From: Acidobacteriota bacterium | Lineage (GTDB): Bacteria; Acidobacteriota; UBA890; WLXD01 | Reading direction: 5' to 3' | DNA: 64,000 nt | Assembly: GCA_965248845.1 (NCBI GenBank) | Contig: CBDFKO010000002.1 | Coordinates: 968,063-1,032,062, forward strand | In this document: in pieces, positions 7,413 to 59,840 of the stretch | Layout: each line of letters begins with the position of its first letter | How positions within the stretch are numbered: position 1 is the stretch's first letter | Notes under the pieces: model-generated | The model's database searches: none | Told to the model about the DNA's origin: nothing | The model's input: only the letters and a program-made list of their open reading frames with translations | Made by a program: the position numbers and the translations under genes

Positions 7413-8390
7413 CTAGTGTGACGCGGCGGAGTTCTCTTGTCTTATGGCTTTGGCGAGGATCTGGTCGGCGGACTTGAGCCAAAGGAAGGGCTCGGAGCCG
7501 TCGTTCCAGGCTCGGATGAAGCGGTGGATGGCCTTGATCAGGACATCGACGCTGCTGAAGCTGCCGCGCCGGACGGCCTGCGAGGTGAGGATGCCGAACC
7601 AGGTCTCCACCTGATTCATCCAGGAAGCGGAAGTGGGCGTGAAGTGACGCGTGAACCGCGGGTGTTGCTCGAACCAGGCCTCGACCTTGGGCTGGGTGTG
7701 GGTGCCGTAGTTGTCCAGCACCAGGTGGATCTCGCCCTCGGGGTAGGTGCGGTCGATCAAGCGTAGGAAGCGAAGAAACTCCTGGTGGCGGTGCCGCTGC
7801 ATGCAGGTGCCCAGGATCTCGGCGGTGGCTAGGTTCAACGCCGCGAACAGCGTCGTGGTGCCGTGGCGTCTGTAATCGTGGGTGCAGCGCTCTGGATCGC
7901 CGCGGCGCATGGGCAACATCGGCTGAGTCCGGTCCAGAGCCTGGATCTGGCTCTTCTCGTCCACGCACAGCACCAGCGCCCCCTGGGGCGGGTGCAGGTA
8001 CAGCCCCACGATGTCGGTGACCTTGTCCTGCAGGAGTGGATCGGCGGAGTACTTGAAGGTCTCGGTGCGATGGGGCTGCAGGCCGTTGCGCCGCCAGATC
8101 CGCAGGATCGTCGAAGGGCTCGCATCGACCTGTTTGGCGAGCCGCTGTGCGCTCCAATGGGTTCGGCTCGGAGGCCTCTCCAGGGTTGCGGCGATGATCT
8201 TGGCTTCCCGCACGGCGTCGTAGGTGCGCACACGACCAGAGCGCGGCTCGTCACCGAGATCCTCGATGCCCTGCTTGGCTGCGCGAGCGCGCCACATGCC
8301 CACGGTCTGTCGGGAGGTCTCGAGGCGCTCGGCGATCTGCTGGTTCTGCAGCCCCTGCTCGGCAAGCAGGATGATGTGGGCTCGGAACAC
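7413..8390 (-). CDS. IS630-family DDE transposase (catalytic part; GTG start)
   Basis: 325 aa with a DDE_3-like core ([12 protein letters not shown]...[10 protein letters not shown]...WMNQVE). About 55% identical to the second IS630 transposase at 56910..58001. Confidence 0.85.
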   Translation of the reverse strand: MFRAHIILLAEQGLQNQQIAERLETSRQTVGMWRARAAKQGIEDLGDEPRSGRVRTYDAVREAKIIAATLERPPSRTHWSAQRLAKQVDASPSTILRIWRRNGLQPHRTETFKYSADPLLQDKVTDIVGLYLHPPQGALVLCVDEKSQIQALDRTQPMLPMRRGDPERCTHDYRRHGTTTLFAALNLATAEILGTCMQRHRHQEFLRFLRLIDRTYPEGEIHLVLDNYGTHTQPKVEAWFEQHPRFTRHFTPTSASWMNQVETWFGILTSQAVRRGSFSSVDVLIKAIHRFIRAWNDGSEPFLWLKSADQILAKAIRQENSAASH

Positions 8391-8573
8391 CTGCCGCTGC
8401 TGTGAGCTCGGCGCGTCGATTACTCCCTGGAGCCGCTGCCCGCTGCTGCCCGGTCAACGAAATCTCCGGTGCTACCCTGGGCATCGTGGCCTCCTGTCCC
8501 GACAAGTTTACTGTCGAGACAAGGAAGTCTTAATATGCCATATAAGTCAAGCTAATTACGACGCGTTACACTA
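7414..8573. mobile_element. IS630-family insertion sequence (copy 1, ~1.16 kb) inserted into a CTAG between truB and rpsO, with TA duplication
   Basis: Flanks are tacTAgtgtgacgcgg on the left and cgcgttacacTAgcgcc on the right. Terminal inverted repeat gtgtgacgcg / gtgtaacgcg. Reconstructed empty site is aCTAGc. Confidence 0.8.
8391..8505 (-). other. N-terminal HTH segment of the IS630 copy-1 transposase, encoded in a different frame from the catalytic part (frameshift)
   Basis: MPRVAPEISLTGQQRAAAPGSNRRAELTAAAGV aligns to the N-terminus of copy 2 ([17 protein letters not shown]...[13 protein letters not shown]). The catalytic ORF lies in the -1 frame relative to it. Confidence 0.45.
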
Positions 8574-8670
8574 GCGCCGCGTCGTCGTCGAGCCCATTCG
8601 ACCCTTTGGCGAGCCGGCGGGCGCATACGTGATCGGCCTCGAATCCCGTCGCGACGAGGCCGCGACGGCG

Positions 8671-9600
8671 TCACTGCAGCACCACCCTCGGCTGCAACAT
8701 GCCCCCCGGGCGAATCTCCGCGGCCGCGATCATGGAGCCTTGCTGGTCCAGGATCCGTACCCAGCCCCCGGCCCCGGTGCCGGTGATGATGTCGCCGTCC
8801 GCACCGGCTCTGCGCTCGACGATGTGGCGGGGCTCGATGACGCCGCCGTTCCGGAGCCGGTGCAGCCCCTCCTCGCCGACCCGGGCCACAGGCCAGGTCG
8901 GAAGCATCTCGGCGCATGGAATCACAGCCGCCAGCAGATCGTCGCGCGAGACCTGCTCCAGAGAGTCCAGCAGCATGGCGCGGTCGAGGCCGAAGCCCCC
9001 GACTCCGAGACGACGCAGTGACTCCAAGTGCGAGGGATAGCCCAAGGCCTCGCCCAGGTCGCGGGCCAGCGTACGTACGTAGGTGCCCGAGCCGCAGTGC
9101 ACCCGCAGATCGATGCGCTCCCCTTCAACGGCGAGCATCTCCAGCGCGTGGATTTCCACACGAATCAGATCGTGCACCACGCTTTCGCCGCGTCGCGCCC
9201 GCTTGTACGCAGGCTGACCACGGATCTTCTTGGCCGAGTACACCGGCGGGATCTGCTCGATCGGCCCGCGAAAGCGCTCCAGTGCCTGCTCGATGGCCGT
9301 CGCGTCGAGCGGCTCGACCGTGACCGGCCCCTCCACGATCTCCCCCTCGGCGTCGTAAGTATCTGTCGCCCAGCCGAGGCGTACGCTGCAGTCGTACACC
9401 TTGTCTTGGTGCTGCAGGAAGCGACTCAGGCGTGTCGCACCACCGACACAGACGAGCAGCACCCCGGTAGCCTGTGGGTCGAGCGTGCCGGTGTGCCCAG
9501 CCCGCGCATCCAGCTGCTTGCGAACGCGCACGACAACGTCGTGGGAGGTCAGCCCTGCCGGCTTGTCGAGAACCAGCATCCCAGCGACGGCAAGGCTCAT
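8671..9600 (-). CDS. truB: tRNA pseudouridine(55) synthase
   Basis: GMLVLDKPAGLTSHDVV...HTGTLDPQATGVL with the catalytic Asp motif. Start at ATG 9600; the ORF-track extension to 9687 is not conserved. Confidence 0.9.
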   Translation of the reverse strand: MSLAVAGMLVLDKPAGLTSHDVVVRVRKQLDARAGHTGTLDPQATGVLLVCVGGATRLSRFLQHQDKVYDCSVRLGWATDTYDAEGEIVEGPVTVEPLDATAIEQALERFRGPIEQIPPVYSAKKIRGQPAYKRARRGESVVHDLIRVEIHALEMLAVEGERIDLRVHCGSGTYVRTLARDLGEALGYPSHLESLRRLGVGGFGLDRAMLLDSLEQVSRDDLLAAVIPCAEMLPTWPVARVGEEGLHRLRNGGVIEPRHIVERRAGADGDIITGTGAGGWVRILDQQGSMIAAAEIRPGGMLQPRVVLQ

Positions 9601-10571
9601 TCGTCGGCCCCTCCCGAGTCCAACACGGCCCGAATAGCGCTCATCAAGGACGCGTAGGCGTGCTCGAACTCGCCGAGGATCTGGCACCCAGCGGCGCGCC
9701 GGTGCCCCCCGCCACCGTGTGCCGACGCCAACTCGGCCACATCGATACTGCCGTCGGAGCGAAAGGATATGCGGAACACATCCGGCTCCGGCTCCTTGAA
9801 CAGCAGGCTGACACGAACCCCGGCGATTCCCTGTGCGTGGTTGATGACACCCTCGGTATCGGTCGTCCCCCGCGCCTCGAACTGATCCCGTCCCAACCGC
9901 ATCCAGGCGATCTGACCGCCTTGCTCCAGTGTCAGTGTCGTGAGCGCATCGCCCATCAACTGGACTCGACCAGCCGGCACGTTGCCAAAAACCGACGAGG
10001 CGATCGGCTCGGGGCGAGCACCCGCGGCCACCATGTCGGCCGCGAAGTAGAGCGCCGATGCGTCGGTATTGGAGTGACGGAACGATCCGGTGTCGGTGAG
10101 CAGCGCCACATACAACTGCGCAGCCATGTCGGCGTCGATCTCGGCCCCCAGCGCGCCGATCAGCTCGCCGACCATCATTCCGACCGCCGCGACCGACGCG
10201 TCGATCCAGTTGACATGCGCGTACATCCCGTTCTTGGTGTGGTGATCGATGTTGAGCGAGGGCAGCGCCTCGAGCCCTTCGAGGCCGGTCCGCGCGAAGT
10301 CGCTACACTCGACCAGAATCGCGCTGGCACACCCCTCCGGCGGCGCGCTCGCCGTCTCGATGCGCTCGGCACCCGGAAGCCAGAAGTGGCGATCGGGCAA
10401 GGCCTGGCCGATCACGACCCGCGTTCGCTTGCCGCGCTGCTCTAACGCCGCAGCCAAGGCCAACGAGGACCCCAGGGAATCCCCGTCAGGGTTCATATGG
10501 GATCCGATCACGAAGTCGTCGTGGGCCTCGAGCCAGGTGACCACGTCGGCGACGTCCTGCACGCTAGTCAT
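9597..10571 (-). CDS. nrnA: DHH-family phosphoesterase (NrnA-like oligoribonuclease/pAp phosphatase)
   Basis: DHH motifs (GSHMNPDGDSLGS, NIDHH) and a DHHA1 C-terminus (GGGHRRAAG). Start at ATG 10571; its stop overlaps the truB start in an ATGA arrangement. Confidence 0.8.
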   Translation of the reverse strand: MTSVQDVADVVTWLEAHDDFVIGSHMNPDGDSLGSSLALAAALEQRGKRTRVVIGQALPDRHFWLPGAERIETASAPPEGCASAILVECSDFARTGLEGLEALPSLNIDHHTKNGMYAHVNWIDASVAAVGMMVGELIGALGAEIDADMAAQLYVALLTDTGSFRHSNTDASALYFAADMVAAGARPEPIASSVFGNVPAGRVQLMGDALTTLTLEQGGQIAWMRLGRDQFEARGTTDTEGVINHAQGIAGVRVSLLFKEPEPDVFRISFRSDGSIDVAELASAHGGGGHRRAAGCQILGEFEHAYASLMSAIRAVLDSGGADE

Positions 10572-10959
10572 CGTCACCCCCCGCCTGACCGGTGTCGAAC
10601 GAGTCCGGCACCTCGACCTCGCGAACCGGATTCTCCTCCAGCAGATGCTCCAGCCGTTCGCTCGCGTCGAGGGTCCGATCCTCGATGAAGTGTAGCTCTG
10701 GGGCCTCACGCAGACGCAGGCGCGCGGCCACTTGACGGCGGAGGAAGGCTCCGGCCCACCGCACGGCCTGCATCGATTCCGCGCGCGCCTCCTCGTCACC
10801 GAAAGTGCTGACCCAGACCTTGGCGTGGTGCAGGTCGTTGCTCATCCGCACCTCGGTGACCGTCACGAAGCCGAGCCGAGGATCGCCGACCTCGCGCATG
10901 AGCAGATCCGCCAGCTCTCGCCGAATCTGATCCGCCACTCTGCGAGGCCGAAATGACAT
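10564..10959 (-). CDS. rbfA: Ribosome-binding factor A
   Basis: 131 aa with the RbfA KH-like core (RVADQIRRELADLL...FVTVTEVRMSNDLHHAKVWVS). Confidence 0.9.
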   Translation of the reverse strand: MSFRPRRVADQIRRELADLLMREVGDPRLGFVTVTEVRMSNDLHHAKVWVSTFGDEEARAESMQAVRWAGAFLRRQVAARLRLREAPELHFIEDRTLDASERLEHLLEENPVREVEVPDSFDTGQAGGDDD

Positions 10960-10963
10960 GGCT

Positions 10964-11157
10964 AGCAGGCCTTCGTGAAGCGCTGATGGATCTCGCGAGT
11001 ACGTCCTGCGGGCGAGGGCAAGGAGCGCCGACGAGTCGATGCGACAACATCGTCGAGGCGGCGCGACACCGCCACCATCCCGCTCGAACCCTCCGGGCAG
11101 CCGCCTGTACTCCTTGGCGGCGCAACCCGACCCATCACACTTTCACCACGGCCTGCT
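10964..11157. repeat. MITE-like element, copy A (~194 bp), CTAG at both ends with imperfect ~25-bp terminal inverted repeats; its left end supplies the rbfA SD-like GAAGG
   Basis: Left end CTAGcaggccttcgtgaagcgctgatgg; right end ccatcacactttcaccacggcctgCTAG. Internal 40-bp block cgccaccatcccgctcgaaccctccgggcagccgcc is shared with the 18302-18469 element. Confidence 0.65.
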
Positions 11158-11198
11158 AGCGGCCTAACCAGACCCATGAGAGCCTCACCAAGATCCTG

Positions 11199-17305: not shown

Positions 17306-17518
17306 ATGTTCGGCTCCATCGGTGGCCCTGAGCTGGTCCTGATCCTGGTTATCATCCTCCTCGTGTTCGGCCCCAAGCGCCTCCCCGAGTTCGGCCGCAC
17401 GATCGGCAAGGGGCTGGCTGAGTTCAAGCGAGCTTCCAGCGATCTGAGGCGCTCGCTCGAGGACGAGGTCCGCGTCGACGAGCCACGGCGCGACATCGGA
17501 CCGCGCGACGACAGTTGA
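17306..17518 (+). CDS. tatA: Sec-independent protein translocase TatA
   Basis: MFGSIGGPELVLILVIILLVFGPKRLPE is the canonical TatA N-terminus. Confidence 0.85.
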   Translation: MFGSIGGPELVLILVIILLVFGPKRLPEFGRTIGKGLAEFKRASSDLRRSLEDEVRVDEPRRDIGPRDDS

Positions 17519-17522
17519 CGCG

Positions 17523-18302
17523 GTGAGCACGGCCGAGCCTCCGGGCCTGCCGGAGACAGCTTCGGCTGCCGGCCGGCGAGAGAGTCTGCCCGAGATGTCC
17601 CTCATGGATCATCTCACCGAGCTGCGCGGGCGTTTGCTGGTCTCCGTGATCGCCGTCGTGCTCGGCGCCATCGGCGCCTGGTTCTACGCCGACGAGCTGT
17701 ACCGGCTGCTGACCCGACCCGTCGTGGAAATCTTGCCGGAACAGGACAATCGGCTGGCGTTCCTGTCGTTGACCGAGCCCTTCGTCCTCTACCTCAAGGT
17801 GGCCGGCCTGGCTGGGCTGTTCGCGGCCTCACCGGTCGTCATCTACCAGGGTTGGATGTTCGTGGCCCCCGGTCTGTACCGAAACGAGAAGCAGCACGCT
17901 TTGCCCGTCGTAGCTGCCTCCGCCGCGTGCTTTTTCGCCGGCGGCGCTTTCGGTTACTTCGTGCTGTTCCCGGTGATGGCCAACTTCTTCCTCGATCTCG
18001 GCTCCGACTTTCGCCAGGTTCTTACCGTGAACCGTCTCTTCGGCTTCCTCGTGCGAACGCTGCTGGGGTGCGCCCTCGTGTTCGAATGGCCCATCGTGGT
18101 CTTCTTTCTGGCACGCCTGGGGATCCTGACGGCCGGGGCAATGTGGAGCGGTCTCGGCTACGCCATCGTCGCGATCTTCGTCATTGCCGCCGTGGTCACG
18201 CCCACCCCCGACGCGCCCACACAGATTATCCTGGCCACGCCGATGCTATTGCTGTACTTGCTCGGTATCGGGATCGCCTGGTTGGTGCAGCCGCGCGACT
18301 AG
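17523..18302 (+). CDS. tatC: Sec-independent protein translocase TatC
   Basis: Six-TM TatC fold with the HLTELRGRL motif. Start is either GTG 17523 or ATG 17595; stop TAG lies inside the CTAG at 18299-18302. Confidence 0.9.
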   Translation: MSTAEPPGLPETASAAGRRESLPEMSLMDHLTELRGRLLVSVIAVVLGAIGAWFYADELYRLLTRPVVEILPEQDNRLAFLSLTEPFVLYLKVAGLAGLFAASPVVIYQGWMFVAPGLYRNEKQHALPVVAASAACFFAGGAFGYFVLFPVMANFFLDLGSDFRQVLTVNRLFGFLVRTLLGCALVFEWPIVVFFLARLGILTAGAMWSGLGYAIVAIFVIAAVVTPTPDAPTQIILATPMLLLYLLGIGIAWLVQPRD

Positions 18303-18469
18303 TGCTCCTGTACACAAGTACGGTGACGTTTGTTGGAGCGGGATGGTGGCGGATGCCAGGCGCACCGACGAGGCGATGTGAGCGCATCGTCGAGCGAGGT
18401 GCAACGCCGCAGACGCCACCATCCCGCTCCAACCCTCCGGGCAGCCGCCGTACTTGTGTACAGGAGCAC
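18302..18469. repeat. 168-bp nested-palindrome MITE with 22-bp perfect terminal inverted repeats that resemble IS630 ends
   Basis: Terminal repeats gtgctcctgtacacaagtacgg / ccgtacttgtgtacaggagcac, similar to the IS630 copy-2 end TAgtctcctgtaacag. Inner 20-bp inverted repeat gttggagcgggatggtggcg / cgccaccatcccgctccaac. Left flank is the CTAG of the tatC stop. Shares a ~65-bp internal block with MITE A. Confidence 0.65.
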
Positions 18470-18478
18470 TGGTGTAAG

Positions 18479-20200
18479 TCAGGCACAGAGATCCTGGATC
18501 TCCAGCTGTGGCACTACCCTGCCGCCCCACCGGCGTGGTTTCAGCGTTGCAACCACCGAGATCTCGTCGATTCCTGCAAGCGCGCTCGCCAGTTCGGGGC
18601 GGCGCCACGCCACGGCCTCGACGTCGCCTTCGTCGGCGCGCAACCGGAGCTTTGTGTGGGCCTCCTTCAGCAGCTGGGGCGGCCCCGCCAAGCGTGCGCC
18701 CTCACACACGAAGCGAGGACGCGGATTGCCGATGCCGAACGGAGCCAGCCGCTCGAGCTCGTGCACCAGGCTCACACTGACGTCGCGAGCCTCCAGACGA
18801 TCGTCGCAGGTCAGCACCGCGCGCAGCGAGCTCGGATCGGCGTTTCGGGCGTTGCTGCCGAGCACCTCGGCCAGGGCAGGCAGATTGGACGCGGGCAGCT
18901 CGAAGCCCGCCGCCTGCTTGTGGCCGCCGTAGCGTCCCAGTAGCTCCGCCGCCCCGTTCAGCGCCTCCACGATGTTGAAGCCGGGAACGGAGCGAGCCGA
19001 GCCATGAGCGACGCCCTCGTCGACCGACGCCACGACCGCCGGACGCCCCCAGCGCTCCACCAACCGCGAAGCTACGATGCCGATCACACCGCGATGCCAG
19101 CCCTCACCCCAGACCAACACGATCGGATCGTCGCCCGAGCCTCCCGACTCGACCGCCTGGTCATAGACGCTACGCTCGAGCTCCTGGCGCCGAGTGTTGA
19201 GCCGCTGCAGGTGGCCGGCAAGCCGTCGGGCTCTACCAGGATCGCCAGTCAGAAACAGCTCGGCTGCCTCGCCCGGATGGCCGATACGCCCCGCCGCGTT
19301 AATCCTCGGCGCCAGCCTGAAGCCCACGTCGCCGGCGGTTACCGAGCGGGCATCGACGCCCGCAACCTTCATCAGCTCGATCAACCCCGGGTTCACGGCT
19401 CCTGCGAGCGAGGCCAGACCGTGGAACGTCATGACCCGATTCTCTCCGTGCAGCGGTACTAGATCCGCAACGGTGCCGAGCGCCACCAGCTTCAGCATCG
19501 ACAGACCGCTGGAGGTGGTCACATGGCGCGCCAGAAGCGCCCGCGCCAGCTTGAAAGCCACGCCTACCGCCGCGAGGTCCTCCTCGGGATAGCCCGAACC
19601 CTCGACGCGTGGGTTGAGAATCGCGGCCGCCTCGGGCAGCTCGGTGCGCGGAATGTGGTGATCGACCACGATGACGTCGATGCCTCGCTGCTTGGCCAAC
19701 GCACAGGCCTCGTGCGCGGTAATGCCGCAGTCCACGCAGATCAGTACCTGTGCCCCGACCTCCGTGGCCTTGTCGATTCCGGACGGATTCAGCCCGTATC
19801 CGTCATCGATACGATGAGGCAGAACGAACTCGGCGTCGGCTCCGAGATGACGCAGCACCATGATCAGCAGGACGGTCGAGGTGATTCCATCGACGTCGTA
19901 GTCGCCGTGCACGACGATGCGCTCGCCGCACCGGATGGCGTACAGCAAGCGATCCACGGCAGCCTCCATGTCGGCGAAGAGAAAAGGGTCGTGCAGACCC
20001 GCGAGTGAAGGCTCCAGGAACGCCTCGGCCGCCTCGCTGGTTTCAATGCCGCGGCCGGCAAGCACCCGGGCCGCGACCGAGCTCAGCCCCAACGTGGTCC
20101 GCAGGCGATTCGCCGCCTGCTCGTCGATGGCGCGGAGCTGCCACGGCCGGCGTGCGGCAAGACGCGCGGCCGGCGCGCCGAGAGTGTCGGCGGTGCTCAC
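18479..20200 (-). CDS. recJ: Single-stranded-DNA-specific exonuclease RecJ
   Basis: 573 aa with DHH motifs (VVHGDYDVDGITS, DHH) and a DHHA1 domain. Confidence 0.9.
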   Translation of the reverse strand: MSTADTLGAPAARLAARRPWQLRAIDEQAANRLRTTLGLSSVAARVLAGRGIETSEAAEAFLEPSLAGLHDPFLFADMEAAVDRLLYAIRCGERIVVHGDYDVDGITSTVLLIMVLRHLGADAEFVLPHRIDDGYGLNPSGIDKATEVGAQVLICVDCGITAHEACALAKQRGIDVIVVDHHIPRTELPEAAAILNPRVEGSGYPEEDLAAVGVAFKLARALLARHVTTSSGLSMLKLVALGTVADLVPLHGENRVMTFHGLASLAGAVNPGLIELMKVAGVDARSVTAGDVGFRLAPRINAAGRIGHPGEAAELFLTGDPGRARRLAGHLQRLNTRRQELERSVYDQAVESGGSGDDPIVLVWGEGWHRGVIGIVASRLVERWGRPAVVASVDEGVAHGSARSVPGFNIVEALNGAAELLGRYGGHKQAAGFELPASNLPALAEVLGSNARNADPSSLRAVLTCDDRLEARDVSVSLVHELERLAPFGIGNPRPRFVCEGARLAGPPQLLKEAHTKLRLRADEGDVEAVAWRRPELASALAGIDEISVVATLKPRRWGGRVVPQLEIQDLCA

Positions 20201-40372: not shown

Positions 40373-40534
40373 GAGCAGGCCATGGCGAGGTGTGATGCGT
40401 CGGGGCAAGTAGGTTCTACGGCCGAGGGCAAGGCTCGGCAGAGCCGGCGCAGGCACATCGTCGAGAGCGTGCCGCGAGGCATCTGCGCCCCTGGCGGCGT
40501 AACCAGCCCATCACACTTTCACCACGGCCTGGTA
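40373..40534. repeat. MITE-like element, copy C (~160 bp), in the divergent promoter region between the methyltransferase gene and the glycosyltransferase cluster
   Basis: Left end gagcaggccatggcgaggtgtgatgcg; right end cccatcacactttcaccacggcctggTAG; interior homologous to copy A (cggccgagggcaagg, acatcgtcgag). Confidence 0.6.
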
Positions 40535-47515: not shown

Positions 47516-48475
47516 ATGAGTGAACGCACAGAGACAGTGCTGATCACAGGTGGTGCCGGATTCATCGGCTCGCACCTCGCCGAGCATCTGCTGGGCCAGG
47601 GTGCCCGCGTGATCGTCATGGACAACTTGCTCACCGGCACCGCGAGCAACGTAGCGCGTTTCGCCAACCGCGACTACCTGTTCATCCAGCACGACGTCAC
47701 CAACTACATGTTCATCGATGAGCCGGTCGACTACGTCCTCCATTTCGCCTCGCCGGCGTCCCCGATCGACTATCTCCGCTACCCGATCCAGACGCTCAAG
47801 GTCGGTGCGCTGGGGACGCACAAGGCACTCGGCCTGGCGCGCCACAAGAACGCGGTCTTCATGTTGGCCTCGACCTCCGAGGTGTACGGCGACCCCCAGA
47901 TCAACCCGCAGCCCGAGTCCTACTGGGGGCACGTGAATCCGATCGGCCCGCGCGGCGTCTACGACGAGGCCAAGCGCTTTGGCGAGGCGATCACCATGGC
48001 CTACCACCGCAGCCACGGGCTGCGGACACGGATCGCGCGAATCTTCAACACCTACGGGCCTCGAATGCGGGTCGACGATGGACGGGCGGTGCCCAACTTC
48101 CTCATGCAGGCGCTTACGGCCGAGCCGATCACGGTGTACGGGGACGGCTCCCAGACGCGTTCCTTCTGCTACGTCGAGGACACGGTGCGTGGCCTCGTGG
48201 CACTGATGTGCTCGGCGGTCAGCGAACCGGTGAACGTCGGAAACCCGGCCGAGATCTCCATTCTGGACATCGCCCGGTTGATCGTCGACAAGACCGAGTC
48301 GAACAGCGAGATCGTGTTTCACGATCTTCCGGTCGACGATCCCAAGGTGCGACGCCCCGACATCGGCCGCGCGCACGCGGAGCTGGGTTGGGACCCGCAG
48401 ATCGACCTCGCCGAAGGTCTCGAGCTCACGATTCCCTGGTTCCGCCAGCAGCTCGCCAAGCGCCAGACCGCCTAG
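47516..48475 (+). CDS. UDP-glucuronate decarboxylase (UDP-xylose synthase), SDR family
   Basis: [10 protein letters not shown] Rossmann motif, catalytic YDEAKR and UXS-type conservation. Stop TAG lies within the CTAG that was targeted by IS5. Confidence 0.9.
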
Positions 48476-49780
48476 CAGGCTGCTGAAAAACGGCTCGAGC
48501 GCGCCATTTTGGGCTGGATCGTCTCGATCACGGTGAGTTAGCGGGGCGGCGAGTGCGAGTGCGAGGCTCTGGTTGCCGGCCGCGCCGGTATTTCTTGGGC
48601 GGTTAGTCCCGATATCGTCACGTCGCCCCCTGGAGGTTGCGCATTCTGACCAGGTTGAAGGCAGCGGCGGTGAAGGTGAACATCCAATCGACGCGTTCGG
48701 TGCCTCGGTGCCGCGTCTTGCGCATCAGCCCGACCGTCTTGGCCCATCCGAACATCTGCTCGACGAGCTTGCGTTTCCTTTGACTGACCTGGTAGCCGGG
48801 GTGGCGGGTTGTGCGCCGGTCGATGGCGCTGCGCCGATTGGTGTCGTTCTGTGCGACGTGCGGGGTGATGTTCCGATCTCGAAGCTTACGGACGCACTCG
48901 CGTGTGTCGTAGCCCTTGTCGGCCGCCAAGGTCACCCTGCGGTTACCGGAAATCTTGTCCGCCATTTGCACCGCCGCCTCTCGTTCCGCTGTCCCGGAAG
49001 CGATCGTTACGCATGCCTTGGTTGCTAACCCGTGGCGGTTGTCGATCATCAGGTGCCCCATGTAGCAGAGCTTCGACTCGGCTCCCCTACTTTTCTTGTA
49101 CAGGCGTGCGTCCGGATCGGTCCTGGAGGCGTGAGTATCGTTTGTGCGCCGTTGTTTGCGAAAATCGACGCTCGGGTTGCTGCCGCCCTCATCGGAGTCG
49201 CTCTGATCCTTCGGCTTGAAGCTCTTGTGTGAGGCCCACGCCTCGATCAGCGTACCGTCCACCGTGAAGTGCTCATCCGATAGCAGGCTGCGGCGCCGTG
49301 CCTCCGCCAGCACTTCCTGGAAGAACACCTCGGCGACCTCGCCTCCCAACACTCGATCCCGGTTCTTCGTGAACACCGTCGCATCCCACACCAGATCGTC
49401 CATGTTCAGGCCCACAAACCACCGGAACAGCAGGTTGTAGTCGAGCTGCTCCATCAGCATGCGCTCGGAGCGAATCGTGTACAGCACCTGCAGCAGCAGC
49501 GCCCGCAGCAGTTTCTCCGGCGGGATCGACGGTCGCCCCGTGTGCGAGTACAGCTTCTCGAACAGCGGCGACATCCGCCCCAGCACATCGTTGACGATCC
49601 TCAGCAGCGGCCGCAGCGGATGCTCTTTCGGTACTCGCTGCTCCGGAGATACGTAACTAAAGGCGGCCACCTGTCCCGCGTCCTCACCACGCATCTGCTC
49701 ACCTCGTTGATGCTTCGGTTTTTGCCGCGGGCTGCGTGGTTCAGAATCTACTCGAACAAGGGGAGTTTTTCAGCAGCCTG
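48476..49780. mobile_element. IS5-family insertion sequence (1305 bp) with 16-bp perfect terminal inverted repeats and a 4-bp CTAG target duplication
   Basis: Terminal repeats caggctgctgaaaaac / gtttttcagcagcctg; CTAG at 48472-48475 and 49781-49784. Confidence 0.85.
48618..49694 (-). CDS. IS5-family DDE transposase
   Basis: 358 aa with DDE_Tnp_1-like motifs (HPLRPLLRIVND..., DKGYD). Confidence 0.9.
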   Translation of the reverse strand: MRGEDAGQVAAFSYVSPEQRVPKEHPLRPLLRIVNDVLGRMSPLFEKLYSHTGRPSIPPEKLLRALLLQVLYTIRSERMLMEQLDYNLLFRWFVGLNMDDLVWDATVFTKNRDRVLGGEVAEVFFQEVLAEARRRSLLSDEHFTVDGTLIEAWASHKSFKPKDQSDSDEGGSNPSVDFRKQRRTNDTHASRTDPDARLYKKSRGAESKLCYMGHLMIDNRHGLATKACVTIASGTAEREAAVQMADKISGNRRVTLAADKGYDTRECVRKLRDRNITPHVAQNDTNRRSAIDRRTTRHPGYQVSQRKRKLVEQMFGWAKTVGLMRKTRHRGTERVDWMFTFTAAAFNLVRMRNLQGAT

Positions 49781-49804
49781 CTAGGAGACCGTGCTTCGGC
49801 CCCT

Positions 49805-56231: not shown

Positions 56232-56870
56232 CTACCGGACCCGCTCCCAGCCGCTGGTAGCGGCGCGGAATCGCCACACGGCGACACGGCCGGTCGCCCC
56301 ATACAAGCGCACCGCCGCAGCGTCCCCGTAAGCGTTGTGGAGATAGACCGTACCGCTACTCGTCGACCCTTCAGGGGCAACGCTCAGCCGATCGAGACGG
56401 CCGAACGCGACGCCATCCGCGGGCCGGGCGCCGGCCAGCGACGGCACCCCGGCCGGTAGACCCGCCACGATCCCGGGAAAGTCGCGTTCGAGACGAAACA
56501 CTCGACCCGTCGGCCTATCGATGTTCCGACGCAGGTCGTCCGATCGGAGGCCGTCCCCATCGCCATCCTCGAGCTCGTGCCATTCCAGACCGTCCACCGT
56601 GTAGAACTGAAGGCCGAAGTGCCGGCCGTGGGCGCTCGCTCTCGCTTGCAAGACGGCGACCTGCGTCGCAATCGCGCCGCAGGCCGACAGGAGCTGTTGG
56701 CTCTGGCGCCATCGGACCCAGGCGGGAGCAGCCGTCTGCACGAGTAGCCCTACGATCGCGAGGCACACGGTCAACTCGAGCAGTGAGACGCCCGCTGCCC
56801 GGAAGGCTACGCCGCCAGCGGCGCGTCCTTGACGGTGGCACCGTAACCAGACCCACCACACTTTCACCAC
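56232..56870 (-). CDS. Orphan prepilin-type N-terminal cleavage/methylation domain protein (GspH/FimT-like minor pseudopilin); 5' end lies within a MITE copy
   Basis: AAG|VSLLELTVCLAIVGLL prepilin motif with Glu at +5; GspH-like C-terminus. No other T2SS/T4P genes nearby. The GTG start falls inside the repeat caccacactttcacc. Confidence 0.55.
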   Translation of the reverse strand: MVKVWWVWLRCHRQGRAAGGVAFRAAGVSLLELTVCLAIVGLLVQTAAPAWVRWRQSQQLLSACGAIATQVAVLQARASAHGRHFGLQFYTVDGLEWHELEDGDGDGLRSDDLRRNIDRPTGRVFRLERDFPGIVAGLPAGVPSLAGARPADGVAFGRLDRLSVAPEGSTSSGTVYLHNAYGDAAAVRLYGATGRVAVWRFRAATSGWERVR

Positions 56871-56879
56871 GGTCTCCTA
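56850..56879. repeat. MITE-family right-end copy (D) immediately left of IS630 copy 2
   Basis: gacccaccacactttcaccacggtctccTA. Confidence 0.6.
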
Positions 56880-58080
56880 GTCTCCTGTAACAGTGGTTCG
56901 CAGCATAAGTCATGAGGCGTGTTGGTCGAGAGTGCGCTGTGCGAACCGGGCGATGGGAGCCAGGATCTCGTCGGCACTCTTGCACCACACGAACGGCTCG
57001 GGGGTCTCGTTGTGCGCATCGATGAACTCCCAGATAGCTGCCACCAGCGCTGCGACACTGCAATGAGATCCGCGGCGGATCTGCTTGTTGGTCAGCTCGG
57101 CGAACCAGCGCTCGACCTGGTTGAGCCACGAGGCATAGGTAGGGGTGAAGTGCAGGTGGAAGCGTGGCCGTTTGGCCAGCCAGGTGTGGATCATCGGGCT
57201 CTTGTGGGTGCCGTAGTTGTCCAGGACCAGATGCACCTGCAGTTGGGCAGGCACCTGCTCATCGATCATGTCCAGGAACTTGCGGAACTCCACCGAGCGA
57301 TGCCGGCGGTGAGTCTGAGCCAGAACGGTTCCCGTCTTGATGTCCAAGGCGGCGAACAACGATGTCGTTCCATGGCGTTGGTAGTCATGCGTGCGCCGCT
57401 CCATCTGGCCGGGCCGCATGGGTAGCAACGGCTGTGTCCGATCCAGTGCCTGGATCTGGCTCTTTTCGTCCACGCACAGCACCACCGCGTGCTCGGGCGG
57501 GTTGACATACAACCCGACGACGTCGCGCACCTTGTCCACCAGTAACGGGTCGGGCGAGAGCTTGAACGTCTCGGTGCGGTGTGGCTTGAGACCAAAGGCA
57601 CGCCAGATCCGGCTGATTGTGGCGTGGCTCAAGCCGGTCGCCTTGGCCATCGACCGGGTGGACCAGTGGGTGGCCCCACGCGGGGTACTCTCCAAGGTGC
57701 GGATGATCACCTGTTCGACCTGGGCGTCCGTGATCTTGCGCGGCGCTCCGGGTCGCGGTTCGTCGTACAGGCCATCGAGACGATCCGACACGAAGCGTGC
57801 CCGCCATTTGCCCACGGTGCTCGGTGACAGCTGCAAGCGCTTGGCCACGGCCTTGTTGTCGTGTCCCTGCGCGCAGGCCAGGACGATGCGCGCGCGGCGT
57901 GCCGGGGCGGGGGCGGTGCGGGATCGATGCGCCAACGAGTTCAGGTGTGCCTCCTCCTGTGGCGTCAGCGTTAAGGGAGCCTTGGGTCGACCGGTGCGCA
58001 TGCGACAATCTCCTGTGCTCAGCTACAGGTTCAACATATGCACACTATAACTTATATCAGTTATTTCTGATACAGGAGAC
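56880..58080. mobile_element. IS630-family insertion sequence (copy 2, 1201 bp) inserted at the TA of a CTAG between two MITE arms
   Basis: TA duplications at 56878-56879 and 58081-58082. Terminal inverted repeat gtctcctgtaacag / gtctcctgtatcag with AT-rich subterminal sequence. Confidence 0.85.
56910..58001 (-). CDS. IS630-family DDE transposase (full length, N-terminal HTH plus DDE core)
   Basis: 363 aa; aligns with the copy-1 transposase over its whole length. Confidence 0.9.
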
Positions 58081-58127
58081 TAGCGGCCCGTGGTGAAAGT
58101 GTGATTAAGCGGCCCGCCGCTTGGTAG
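58081..58127. repeat. MITE-family left-end/micro copy (E) immediately right of IS630 copy 2
   Basis: TAgcggcccgtggtgaaagtgtgatt...cttggTAG. Together with D it forms a 16-bp perfect palindrome, cacactttcaccacgg / ccgtggtgaaagtgtg, centred on the TA that was duplicated. Confidence 0.6.
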
Positions 58128-58158: not shown

Positions 58159-59820
58159 ATGAAATGCGGAACCAGGCTCATGGCGTGGCGCACCCTTCCG
58201 GCGATCGGGGCCTGCCTTCCCCAGCTGGTTGCGGTCGCCGCCTGCGCGTCCCCTGCCCCCATGACCGTGATCGGACTAGTCCCGGCCCCCGCCTCCATGA
58301 CCCTGGGTTCCGGGCTCTTTCGCCTGACGGTCGCGACGGAAGTAGCGCAGCCTCCGCCCGAGCTCGCGAGCGTCGTCGCGCGACAGATCGAGGCGCTGCG
58401 CCGTAGCACCGGGCTGCCACTCGCCGATGCGGCGAACGACGCCTTGGGCATCCGTGTGGTAGCTGACGCGACGCTCCCGGCGGAGGGATACCGACTGCGC
58501 GTGGTGCCGGGCGAGCTGAGCATCGAGGCCTCGACCGAAGCCGGCGTCTTCTACGCCTTCCAGACGCTGCGTCAGCTGCTGCCGCCCGAGATCGAGTCGG
58601 ACACCCCGGTGCAAGGCGTCGACTGGACGATCCCCACGCTCGAGATCGAGGATGCGCCGCGCTTCCCCTACCGGGGCATGCACCTCGACGTTGGCCGCCA
58701 CTTCTTCCCGGTCGAGGTCGTCAAGAAGTACATCGACACCATCGCGCGCTTCAAGTTCAACCGCTTGCACTGGCACCTGACCGAGGATCAGGGCTGGCGT
58801 GTCCAGATCGACGCCTACCCCAGGCTCACCGAAGTCGGCGCCTGGCGCGCTGAGAGTCCCGCCGACGGAAACCGCGAAATCTACACCGGCGACGGCACCC
58901 CGCACGGAGGCTTCTACACCAAGCAGCAGATCCGCGAGGTCGTCGTCTACGCCCAGGAGCGCTTCGTTACCGTGGTCCCCGAGATCGAGATGCCCGGCCA
59001 CGCCACCGCCGCGATCGCTGCCTACCCCGAGCTCGGCTGCACCGACGAGCAGCTCGAGGTCTCCACCATCTGGGGCATCCACGACACCATCTACTGCCCC
59101 CAGGAGGAGACCTTCGAGTTCCTCGAGACCGTGCTCTCGGAGGTCATGGAGCTGTTCCCCTCCGAGTACCTGCACATCGGCGGCGACGAGGTTCCCAAGC
59201 GCCAATGGCAGGAGAGCGAGCTGGCCCAGGAGGTCATTCGCCGCGAGGGCCTGGCCGACGAGGACGAGCTGCAAAGCTGGTTCATCCGCCGCATCGAGCG
59301 CCACCTGCGCGCCAACGGCCGCCGCCTGATCGGCTGGGACGAGATCCTCGAGGGAGGGCTAGCGCCCGACGCCACCGTCATGTCCTGGCGCGGCAACGAG
59401 GGTGGCATCGAGGCCGCCCACCAGGGCCACAACGTCATCATGACCCCCATCGAGCACGCCTACTTCGACTTCTACCAGGGCGACGAGGCCACCGAGCCCC
59501 TGGCCATGGACTGGGCCGGCTTCCCGATCACCCTGCAGACAGTCTACGAGTTCGAGCCGGTTCCGGAGGTCCTGACCGAGCAGCAGGCCGAGCATATCCT
59601 CGGAGCCCAGGGCAACGTCTGGACCGAGTACATCAGCACGCCGGAGTACCTCGAGTACATGGCCTTCCCGCGGGCGCTGCCCATGGCAGAGGTGGTCTGG
59701 AGCCCGCGCGTGAGCCGCGACTGGCCGGGCTTCGTGGAACGGCTTGCAAGCGTGCTGCCGCACCTGGATGCCCTGGAGGTCAGCTACCGCTTTCCTGCGG
59801 AGGTGATCCACGACCGCTGA
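58159..59820 (+). CDS. Beta-N-acetylhexosaminidase, GH20 family, probable lipoprotein
   Basis: GH20 catalytic motifs (HLDVGRHFF, HWHLTEDQGWR, D-E catalytic pair); N-terminal signal with a cysteine. Confidence 0.9.
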   Translation: MKCGTRLMAWRTLPAIGACLPQLVAVAACASPAPMTVIGLVPAPASMTLGSGLFRLTVATEVAQPPPELASVVARQIEALRRSTGLPLADAANDALGIRVVADATLPAEGYRLRVVPGELSIEASTEAGVFYAFQTLRQLLPPEIESDTPVQGVDWTIPTLEIEDAPRFPYRGMHLDVGRHFFPVEVVKKYIDTIARFKFNRLHWHLTEDQGWRVQIDAYPRLTEVGAWRAESPADGNREIYTGDGTPHGGFYTKQQIREVVVYAQERFVTVVPEIEMPGHATAAIAAYPELGCTDEQLEVSTIWGIHDTIYCPQEETFEFLETVLSEVMELFPSEYLHIGGDEVPKRQWQESELAQEVIRREGLADEDELQSWFIRRIERHLRANGRRLIGWDEILEGGLAPDATVMSWRGNEGGIEAAHQGHNVIMTPIEHAYFDFYQGDEATEPLAMDWAGFPITLQTVYEFEPVPEVLTEQQAEHILGAQGNVWTEYISTPEYLEYMAFPRALPMAEVVWSPRVSRDWPGFVERLASVLPHLDALEVSYRFPAEVIHDR

Positions 59821-59821
59821 C

Positions 59822-59840
59822 AGTAGTGCTCTGTAACAGA
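59822..59840. repeat. Solo IS630-like terminal inverted repeat (TAgtgctctgtaacag) at the hexosaminidase stop
   Basis: Resembles the IS630 copy-2 end and the 18302 MITE end. A weak AT-rich match (cactatatcagtt) to the IS630 subterminal sequence lies near 60425. Confidence 0.35.

Follow-up and report, generated by a model that had tools for sequence, protein, structure and literature searches.

The canonical target of the insertion sequence (IS) IS630 is CTAG, and the preference of IS630 for the TA within this tetranucleotide is reportedly the subject of a 1991 study by Tenzen and Ohtsubo. For ISY100, a member of the IS630 family, insertion at TA with duplication of the dinucleotide is the rule in vitro, and in rare products only one of the sides has a normal TA (PMC2170065). 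The pneumococcal RUP, a miniature transposable element with inverted repeats (MITE) of 107 bp that is present in about 108 copies, is thought to be moved by IS630-Spn1 (PMC2229807). Here we describe a 168-bp element located between tatC and recJ in a 64,000-nucleotide stretch of an Acidobacteriota genome (assembly GCA_965248845.1, contig CBDFKO010000002.1, positions 968,063 to 1,032,062). We refer to the whole stretch as the window and number all positions from its first letter; features are listed in Table 1. In our judgement the element is probably a non-autonomous DNA transposon, that is a MITE, of the IS630/Tc1-mariner type, and it adds a MITE family from a poorly studied lineage. It represents an otherwise ordinary kind of element with an unusually well-preserved long hairpin.

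At 168 bp the element is well within the size range of MITEs (less than about 300 bp), and its termini are inverted repeats that are perfect over 22 bp. When flanking bases are counted, the outer repeat extends to 26 nt at 96% identity (ACTAGTGCTCC versus ACCAGTGCTCC). The inner inverted repeat (18332-18351 paired with 18414-18433) is perfect over 20 nt and 92% identical over 25 nt. Both perfect repeats had been reported by a first-pass annotation of the window, which also predicted a long hairpin, and our RNA folding bears this out: the 168 bp fold into a single hairpin of about 80 bp, with a calculated energy of -128.5 kcal/mol for RNA of the plus strand (z-score, -14.3). The corresponding values are -117 for RNA of the minus strand (z -11.0) and -71.7 for DNA (z -14.1). 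The element is too short to encode a transposase, and a six-frame peptide query matched no protein among 5.8 billion. This query, which was aimed at spurious open reading frames (ORFs) on other copies, consisted of the concatenated translations of the 168-bp element, of a second MITE in the window (MITE A) and of a homologous element in a metagenomic contig that we call L034 (see below).

The left boundary of the element, ...GAC TA/GTGCTCC, lies within a CTAG, such that the stop codon of tatC is made up of the target TA and the first G of the element. CTAG is depleted approximately 2.7-fold in the window (42 sites, compared to 115 +/- 10 in shuffled sequences), and an exact boundary at this tetranucleotide is therefore informative. 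Nine of the 42 sites bound mobile elements (7413, 8571, 10962, 11156, 18299, 48472, 49781, 56877 and 58080). The C-terminus of the TatC protein, ...IAWLVQPRD, matches the length of those of its relatives (...IAWVAGKR and ...IAWAVAPRS), which indicates that the stop codon is at its native position. The right boundary reads GGAGCAC/TG GTGTAAG TCA, where TCA is the stop codon of recJ on the opposite strand; the junction tetranucleotide is CTGG, one base off. Removing the element together with one dinucleotide in silico leaves GAC-TAG-TGTAAG-TCA, in which the stop codons are separated by six bases.

The same locus is recognisable in related genomes. By its RecJ homologues the organism falls among Acidobacteria-like bacteria that are uncultured. 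The nearest RecJ homologues are 70% and 66% identical (loci L001 and L002, respectively); the named RecJ matches are metagenome-assembled genomes of Acidobacteria/Acidobacteriota with identities of 60% or less, and homologues of the transposases discussed below also bear Acidobacteria names. Both nearest relatives keep accA-recJ convergent with tatC-tatA-PALP, and their stop-to-stop spacers measure 12 bp (L001) and 24 bp (L002), compared to 176 bp in the window. The comparison shows that a long spacer is not conserved at this locus. The first-pass annotation had stated that its reading would fall if no other copies existed and relatives shared the sequence as a conserved structured RNA gene. 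We found no identical second copy, but the two relatives lack the element at this site.

The termini of the element point to the IS630 family. Within the window, the only sequences within edit distance 1 of the element end TAGTGCTCCTGTA are the two ends of the element itself, the two ends of an IS that we call IS630 copy 2 (TAGTCTCCTGTA; 56880 and 58080), and a solo end at 59824 (TAGTGCTCTGTA); the resemblance to these ends claimed in the first-pass annotation is thus real. Aligned with TAGT-CTCCTGTA of copy 2, the element end matches at 12 of 13 positions with one indel, and the likeness ends after about 12 nt. Copy 2 and a second IS in the window, IS630 copy 1, both encode Pfam DDE_3 and HTH domains and are both flanked by TA inside CTAG, and they score 292 and 278 bits, respectively, against the NCBIfam IS630 equivalog NF033545 (cut-off, 100). 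The ends of copy 1 (GTGTRACGCG) are unrelated to those of the 168-bp element. A plasmid search with copy 2 returned relatives annotated as IS630 family, and 11 relatives from other metagenomes, 87-92% identical to copy 2 in nucleotide sequence, share its ends, its CTAG junctions and its TA duplication. Copy 2 is the closest candidate source of the transposase. Mobilisation by an IS630-family enzyme appears well supported in kind. We also considered whether the element is a deletion derivative of copy 2 and rejected this, as the interior of the element has no similarity to copy 2.

A second member of the family was found in contig L034 (ENA ERZ26167216; 22.6 kb, 66.7% GC), which we reached via the copy 2 transposase and in which IS630 copy 2 is present at 99.5% identity. 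The L034 element sits in a different genomic context, beside an IS. It has terminal repeats of 35 nt at 94% identity, an inner repeat of 20 nt at 95% identity, and a predicted hairpin with a z-score of -13.2. In a global alignment with the 168-bp element, 120 of 162 aligned positions are identical (74%), with a score of 77 compared to -37 +/- 12 in shuffled sequences, and the first 144 columns are free of gaps.

The two halves of the 168-bp element are akin over their full length (65 matches in a 96-column half-versus-half alignment), as would suit a local palindrome created by replication template switching (fold-back duplication). Such an origin, or a resident structured RNA gene, would dispense with transposition altogether, and it would also fit the presence of a single copy in all data searched and the imperfect target duplication (see below). 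We nevertheless consider it very improbable. A homologous element occurs in the unrelated context of L034, the left junction falls in a rare CTAG, the terminus is related to IS630-family ends, and relatives have the same site without the element. Rfam 15 at gathering thresholds gave no match in the whole window; the best sub-threshold match for the element, MIR1858, scored 36 bits against a threshold of 137 bits, and the permissive matches were all microRNA-precursor hairpins. The assignment to an IS630-type MITE made in the first-pass annotation is supported by the terminal repeats, the small size, the lack of coding capacity, the left CTAG junction, the IS630-related terminus and the absence from two relatives.

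Three further candidates were rejected. An integron attC site was dismissed on reading the sequence, because neither the core motifs nor the order in which they occur fit, and the surroundings are not those of an integron. A REP/RAYT-type palindrome was dismissed because the terminal repeats and the CTAG junction fit IS630; a RAYT context was not looked for. An assembly artefact was dismissed because of the homologue in the independent contig L034.

Several observations weigh against an IS630-type MITE. The first concerns copy number: multicopy status is a defining trait of MITEs, and the count stands at one copy in the window plus one diverged homologue in L034. Searches of the window, of Joint Genome Institute (JGI) metagenomes, of viral contigs and of plasmids revealed no other copy that has these terminal repeats, and all three scans of viral contigs were negative. 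The 22-mer GTGCTCCTGTACACAAGTACGG, with up to three mismatches allowed, has no further copy in the window and never occurred in shuffled sequences. A 19-base core pattern gave 31 single matches, in unrelated taxa, among 185,579 species-representative genomes, and none in the JGI metagenomes. The source genome is not part of the species-representative set, since it would have given three matches and gave none. We discount the 31 matches as chance, because BLAST extends each of them over only 20-25 nt. Plasmid BLAST searches with the 168-bp element and with the L034 element gave no match, and nhmmer searches with core and full-length profiles found no further members in the 361 kb of DNA compared.

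The second group of adverse observations concerns the ends. The target duplication is imperfect, with TG instead of TA on the right, even though all 44 bases of the terminal repeats are flawless. The L034 relative likewise lacks a right-hand TA (it has TT), its left side being TA. The imperfect right-hand duplication of the 168-bp element may reflect a point change or aberrant integration. The similarity to copy 2 stops after those dozen nucleotides, and the terminal repeat of the L034 member (GTACTCCAATCC...) is further from copy 2 than that of the 168-bp element. We searched 13 loci of copy 2 relatives for a partner, namely an IS630-family element with GTGCTCCTGTACA-type ends. None has matching 22-bp repeats; the ends of these IS are GTCTCCTGTAWCAG, or ATCTCCCGTCTCAG in locus L046, and none is GTGCTCCTGTACAC. 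Finally, the "empty sites" come from distant relatives rather than from strains of the same species, and relatives at this distance (66-70% RecJ identity) give no recent empty allele.

The alignment of the 168-bp element with the L034 element allows a comparison of the stems. All 59 consensus base pairs are formed in both elements, and 22 of them, including seven of the terminal repeats and 11 of the inner stem, have changed on both sides. In a control in which the pairing partners were slid by 1-3 columns, there were only 0-2 double-sided changes. This comparison rests on two sequences and is descriptive, not a test. G-U pairs occupy three of the 118 cells across the two elements, and the symmetry of the stem looks like inverted-repeat identity at the DNA level rather than an RNA-only constraint. 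The pairing may have been kept by selection on the structure, by symmetric binding sites for a protein, or because the two arms evolve in concert.

We then compared the interior of the element with two other MITEs in the window, A and B, whose boundaries follow the same CTAG/TA logic: like the 168-bp element, these CTAG-MITEs start with G, end with C and rebuild CTAG. The first-pass annotation had described the element as an apparent chimera of an IS630-like end and a CTAG-MITE interior, citing about 90% identity to MITE A over about 65 bp with one gap. The figure is correct for ungapped columns (91%), but over all columns, which include one gap of 1 nt and another of 6 nt, the identity is 53/65 (82%). 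Overall, the element is 79% identical to MITE A over 101 columns (E 1.5e-18). This similarity is a mosaic. In the apical core (18352-18413) the element is 81% identical to L034, 73% to MITE A and 61% to MITE B. In the right inner arm and spacer (18414-18447) it agrees with MITE A at 33 of 34 positions (97%, z 12), whereas its similarity to L034 (62%) and to MITE B is not significant. In the terminal repeats the similarity is 68% to L034 (z about 3) and not significant to either CTAG-MITE. The terminal repeats of the CTAG-MITEs, GCAGGCC...CACTTTCACCACGGCCTGC, are unrelated to GTGCTCC... of the element, whose terminal segments compared to A and B give z-scores of -1.5 to 0.1. MITE A also differs from the element in having no left copy of the inner repeat and a far weaker fold (z -4.1). 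With the core as query, nhmmer found exactly four instances in the 361 kb.

The mosaic relationship to MITE A, together with the presence of the core in MITE B and in L034, would be compatible with a one-off chimera, in which recombination joined IS630-like ends to a CTAG-MITE interior or a common non-autonomous ancestor exchanged its ends. We consider such an event unlikely. The L034 element has the same type of terminal repeat, a matching left spacer, an inner stem in the same place and a shared core, all in ungapped register, and hence this type of terminal repeat and this interior appear to belong together as the design of a family. By this comparison of sequences, the element does not seem to have arisen from a single event that fused an IS end to the interior of a CTAG-MITE; the chimera claim is supported in part, by the patchwork similarity to MITE A. 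The 34-nt block is single and on one side only in MITE A, and it is absent from MITE B; in the 168-bp element it occupies the native inner-stem position of the family, with its 20-nt part on both arms. Transfer of the block into MITE A is therefore at least as likely as the reverse, although four sequences cannot settle the direction. Sequence exchange between two MITE families in this genome, by gene conversion or recombination, is the likely source of the shared block.

The location of the hairpin raises the question of its effect on transcripts. The stop codons of tatC and recJ are 0 and 9 nt away from the element, so both convergent transcripts must enter it, and each mRNA would carry a long double-stranded hairpin at its 3' end. 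The first-pass annotation had proposed a bidirectional terminator. The hairpin is real, but on neither strand is it followed by a U-tract, and a scan of 17400-19000 for hairpin-plus-T-run terminators returned no sites, so that this proposal was not substantiated. Other parts of the window do contain canonical hairpin-plus-U terminators, such as the one at 15887-15864 on the minus strand. A sigma-70-like promoter was not found in or around the element, and neither was an IHF site. By analogy with Correia elements, RNase III might cleave the 3' hairpin, or the hairpin might hinder polymerase; the effect on the transcripts is most likely none or mild.

A stronger proposition would be that selection keeps the hairpin for a function, such as bidirectional termination without a U-tract, cleavage by RNase III or the binding of a protein to the palindrome, and that transposition was only the means of delivery. 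This idea draws on the complete pairing in both family members, on the double-sided changes, half of which lie in the inner stem outside the 22-bp repeats, on the conservation of the apical core, and on the location between convergent operons whose stop codons are otherwise only about 6-24 bp apart. The stem-loop transcripts of Correia elements have been proposed as RNase III targets (PMC2229807). We doubt that selection is at work, however: there is neither a U-tract nor a terminator call, no Rfam family matches, the scarcity of G-U pairs suggests symmetry at the level of DNA, and relatives manage without the element. With two sequences only, kinship and concerted evolution of the arms may also explain the pairing.

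A more far-reaching view, which we regard as speculative and rather improbable, is that these are modular hairpin MITEs, with a stem of about 80 bp kept strictly Watson-Crick by compensatory change and a conserved apical module traded between families with different terminal repeats. If this were true, structured cargo dropped at gene ends would be under selection or under an active mechanism that homogenises the arms. Between convergent operons, such cargo could block transcription in both directions without a U-tract or provide a site for RNase III.

To return to the IS630-type MITE that we favour, its history may have been as follows. The ancestral site was probably ...GAC TAG TGTAAG TCA..., and some 6 nt would have separated the two stop codons. 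Acting in trans, an IS630-family transposase would have bound both terminal repeats, excised the element and pasted it into the TA of the CTAG that overlaps the tatC stop codon. As the element begins with G, tatC would have kept its TAG stop at the native position. The right-hand copy of the TA is now TG, from which we infer an A-to-G change. The element would belong to a small family, with the L034 element as second member, that is built as a full-length Watson-Crick palindrome around a conserved apical core of about 60 nt. A related core is present in the CTAG-MITEs of the same genome, and the 34-nt patch may have passed between the two MITE families, in either direction, by gene conversion or recombination.

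Table 1. Features of the 168-bp element, its junctions and the related elements. Positions refer to the window unless a contig is named; a slash marks an element boundary.
Feature	Position	Strand	Description
168-bp element	18302-18469		between tatC and recJ; non-coding, nested inverted repeats
Left terminal inverted repeat GTGCTCCTGTACACAAGTACGG	18302-18323	+	perfect over 22 nt; 16/22 identical to L034 element in register
Left spacer TGACGTTT	18324-18331	+	asymmetric internal loop; 7/8 identical to L034 element
Left arm of inner inverted repeat GTTGGAGCGGGATGGTGGCG	18332-18351	+	perfect over 20 nt with 18414-18433
Apical core	18352-18413	+	smaller imperfect hairpin with centre CGATG..CATCG; conserved
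Right inner arm and right spacer	18414-18447	+	near-identical to MITE A 11070-11103
Right terminal inverted repeat CCGTACTTGTGTACAGGAGCAC	18448-18469	+	exact reverse complement of GTGCTCCTGTACACAAGTACGG
CTAG of left junction	18299-18302		TA at 18300-18301 is the presumed target dinucleotide
Right flank	18470-18471		TG in place of the expected TA, one base off
tatC	17523-18302	+	Pfam TatC (E 4.8e-64); TAG stop at 18300-18302
recJ	18479-20200	-	Pfam DHH, DHHA1, RecJ_OB; convergent with tatC; stop 9 nt from the element
L034 element	L034:11008-11197		190 bp; abuts an IS of the IS630 copy 2 type and shares its TA
IS630 copy 2	56880-58080	-	intact 363-aa transposase; ends TA/GTCTCCTGTAACAG and TA/GTCTCCTGTATCAG; TA duplication in CTAG
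IS630 copy 1	7416-8571	-	325-aa ORF; ends TA/GTGTGACGCG and TA/GTGTAACGCG; inserted in CTAG
Solo end TA/GTGCTCTGTAACAG	59824-59839	+	intermediate between the ends of the 168-bp element and of IS630 copy 2
MITE A (CTAG-MITE)	10965-11156	+	GCAGGCC... ends; flanked on each side by TA within CTAG; core and 34-nt block in common with the 168-bp element
MITE B (decayed CTAG-MITE)	40375-40532	+	core shared weakly; 34-nt block absent; left flank GA, not TA; last base G, not C; about 34 bp shorter than MITE A

Some further observations were made on the IS and solitary ends. The solo end at 59824-59839 directly follows the stop codon of a 553-aa ORF (58159-59820) and has no partner within the window. 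The protein of IS630 copy 1 is only 55% identical to that of copy 2, and its 325-aa ORF, relative to copy 2, starts some 35 residues further in; a stop codon interrupts the extension that we tested upstream (7440-8490, minus strand), and copy 1 may be N-terminally truncated or may use another start. A match of 13/14 to the terminal repeat of the L034 element (TAGTACTCCAATCC) was noted at 1537-1552 of the window (TTAGTACTCCTATCC), with no partner repeat nearby; it may be a lone remnant of this family or have arisen by chance. An IS of about 1.3 kb with CTAG at both ends occupies 48472-49783, and its homologue in L034 encodes a DDE_Tnp_1 transposase.

IS630 copy 2 occupies the central CTAG of a palindrome that consists of CTAG-MITE-like ends (...CACTTTCACCACGGTCTCC TA / TA GCGGCCCGTGGTGAAAGTGTG; 56840-56879 and 58081-58110), and its relatives in other metagenomes (flanks of L038-L044) are repeatedly bordered on both sides by AACCACGGGCTG/CTAG, which suggests a preferred target or a widespread partner MITE. 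In L034, three CTAG-associated elements are stacked at one site (8495-11197): a DDE_Tnp_1/DUF772 IS that is 93% identical to window 48472-49783, the copy 2-type IS (99.5%) and the 190-bp hairpin MITE. With G as their first base and C as their last, the elements restore CTAG whenever they insert and so make new landing sites. In DNA in which CTAG is depleted, the rebuilt sites would act as landing pads for further IS630-type insertions, which explains the nested arrangements in the window and in L034.

The 168-bp element provides a clean example of an IS630-type element placed on a stop codon with the gene undamaged. The whole hairpin, kept by compensatory change, and the patchy likeness between MITE families give modest clues to the evolution of such families and to the exchange of parts between them. 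Current understanding is unchanged unless a function at the transcript level is shown.

How does the element compare with described systems? RUP resembles it in being small and non-coding, in inserting at TA and in having terminal repeats like those of an IS630-family element of the same genome (PMC2229807). RUP also tends to land beside or inside other IS (PMC2229807); here, IS630 copy 2 sits at a CTAG made by MITE ends. The differences are that RUP has its roughly 108 copies, compared to a single one in 64 kb, that the likeness to an IS end extends over only about 12 nt in our case, and that the 168-bp element is GC-rich and an almost complete palindrome of 80 bp. Stowaway-type MITEs of eukaryotes, which are mobilised by Tc1/mariner elements, share the TA target, the short terminal repeats and a hairpin formed by the whole element. 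They belong to another domain of life and have no homology to the 168-bp element, and the scores of the latter with plant and animal microRNA families of Rfam reflect hairpin shape only.

The Correia/NEMIS elements of Neisseria are of similar size (100-155 bp) and likewise have terminal repeats with TA at the ends (PMC2229807). They are co-transcribed with their neighbours into long stem-loops (PMC2229807), and for this reason they offer the best analogy for how the hairpin between tatC and recJ might act. Unlike the 168-bp element, in which we found neither feature, Correia elements carry an IHF site and parts of promoters, and they are highly repeated; a sequence relationship between the two would not be expected. 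Finally, ERIC (127 bp) and YPAL/RU-2 (168 bp) of enterobacteria and Yersinia are intergenic imperfect palindromes that form long RNA hairpins (PMC2229807, PMC2759123). YPAL is also alike in not being AT-rich and in lacking a terminal TA (PMC2229807, PMC2759123), but its inverted repeats are internal and its duplications range from 3 to 26 bp, whereas the 168-bp element has true terminal repeats. It is the CTAG/TA junction that sets the 168-bp element apart from YPAL and links it to IS630.

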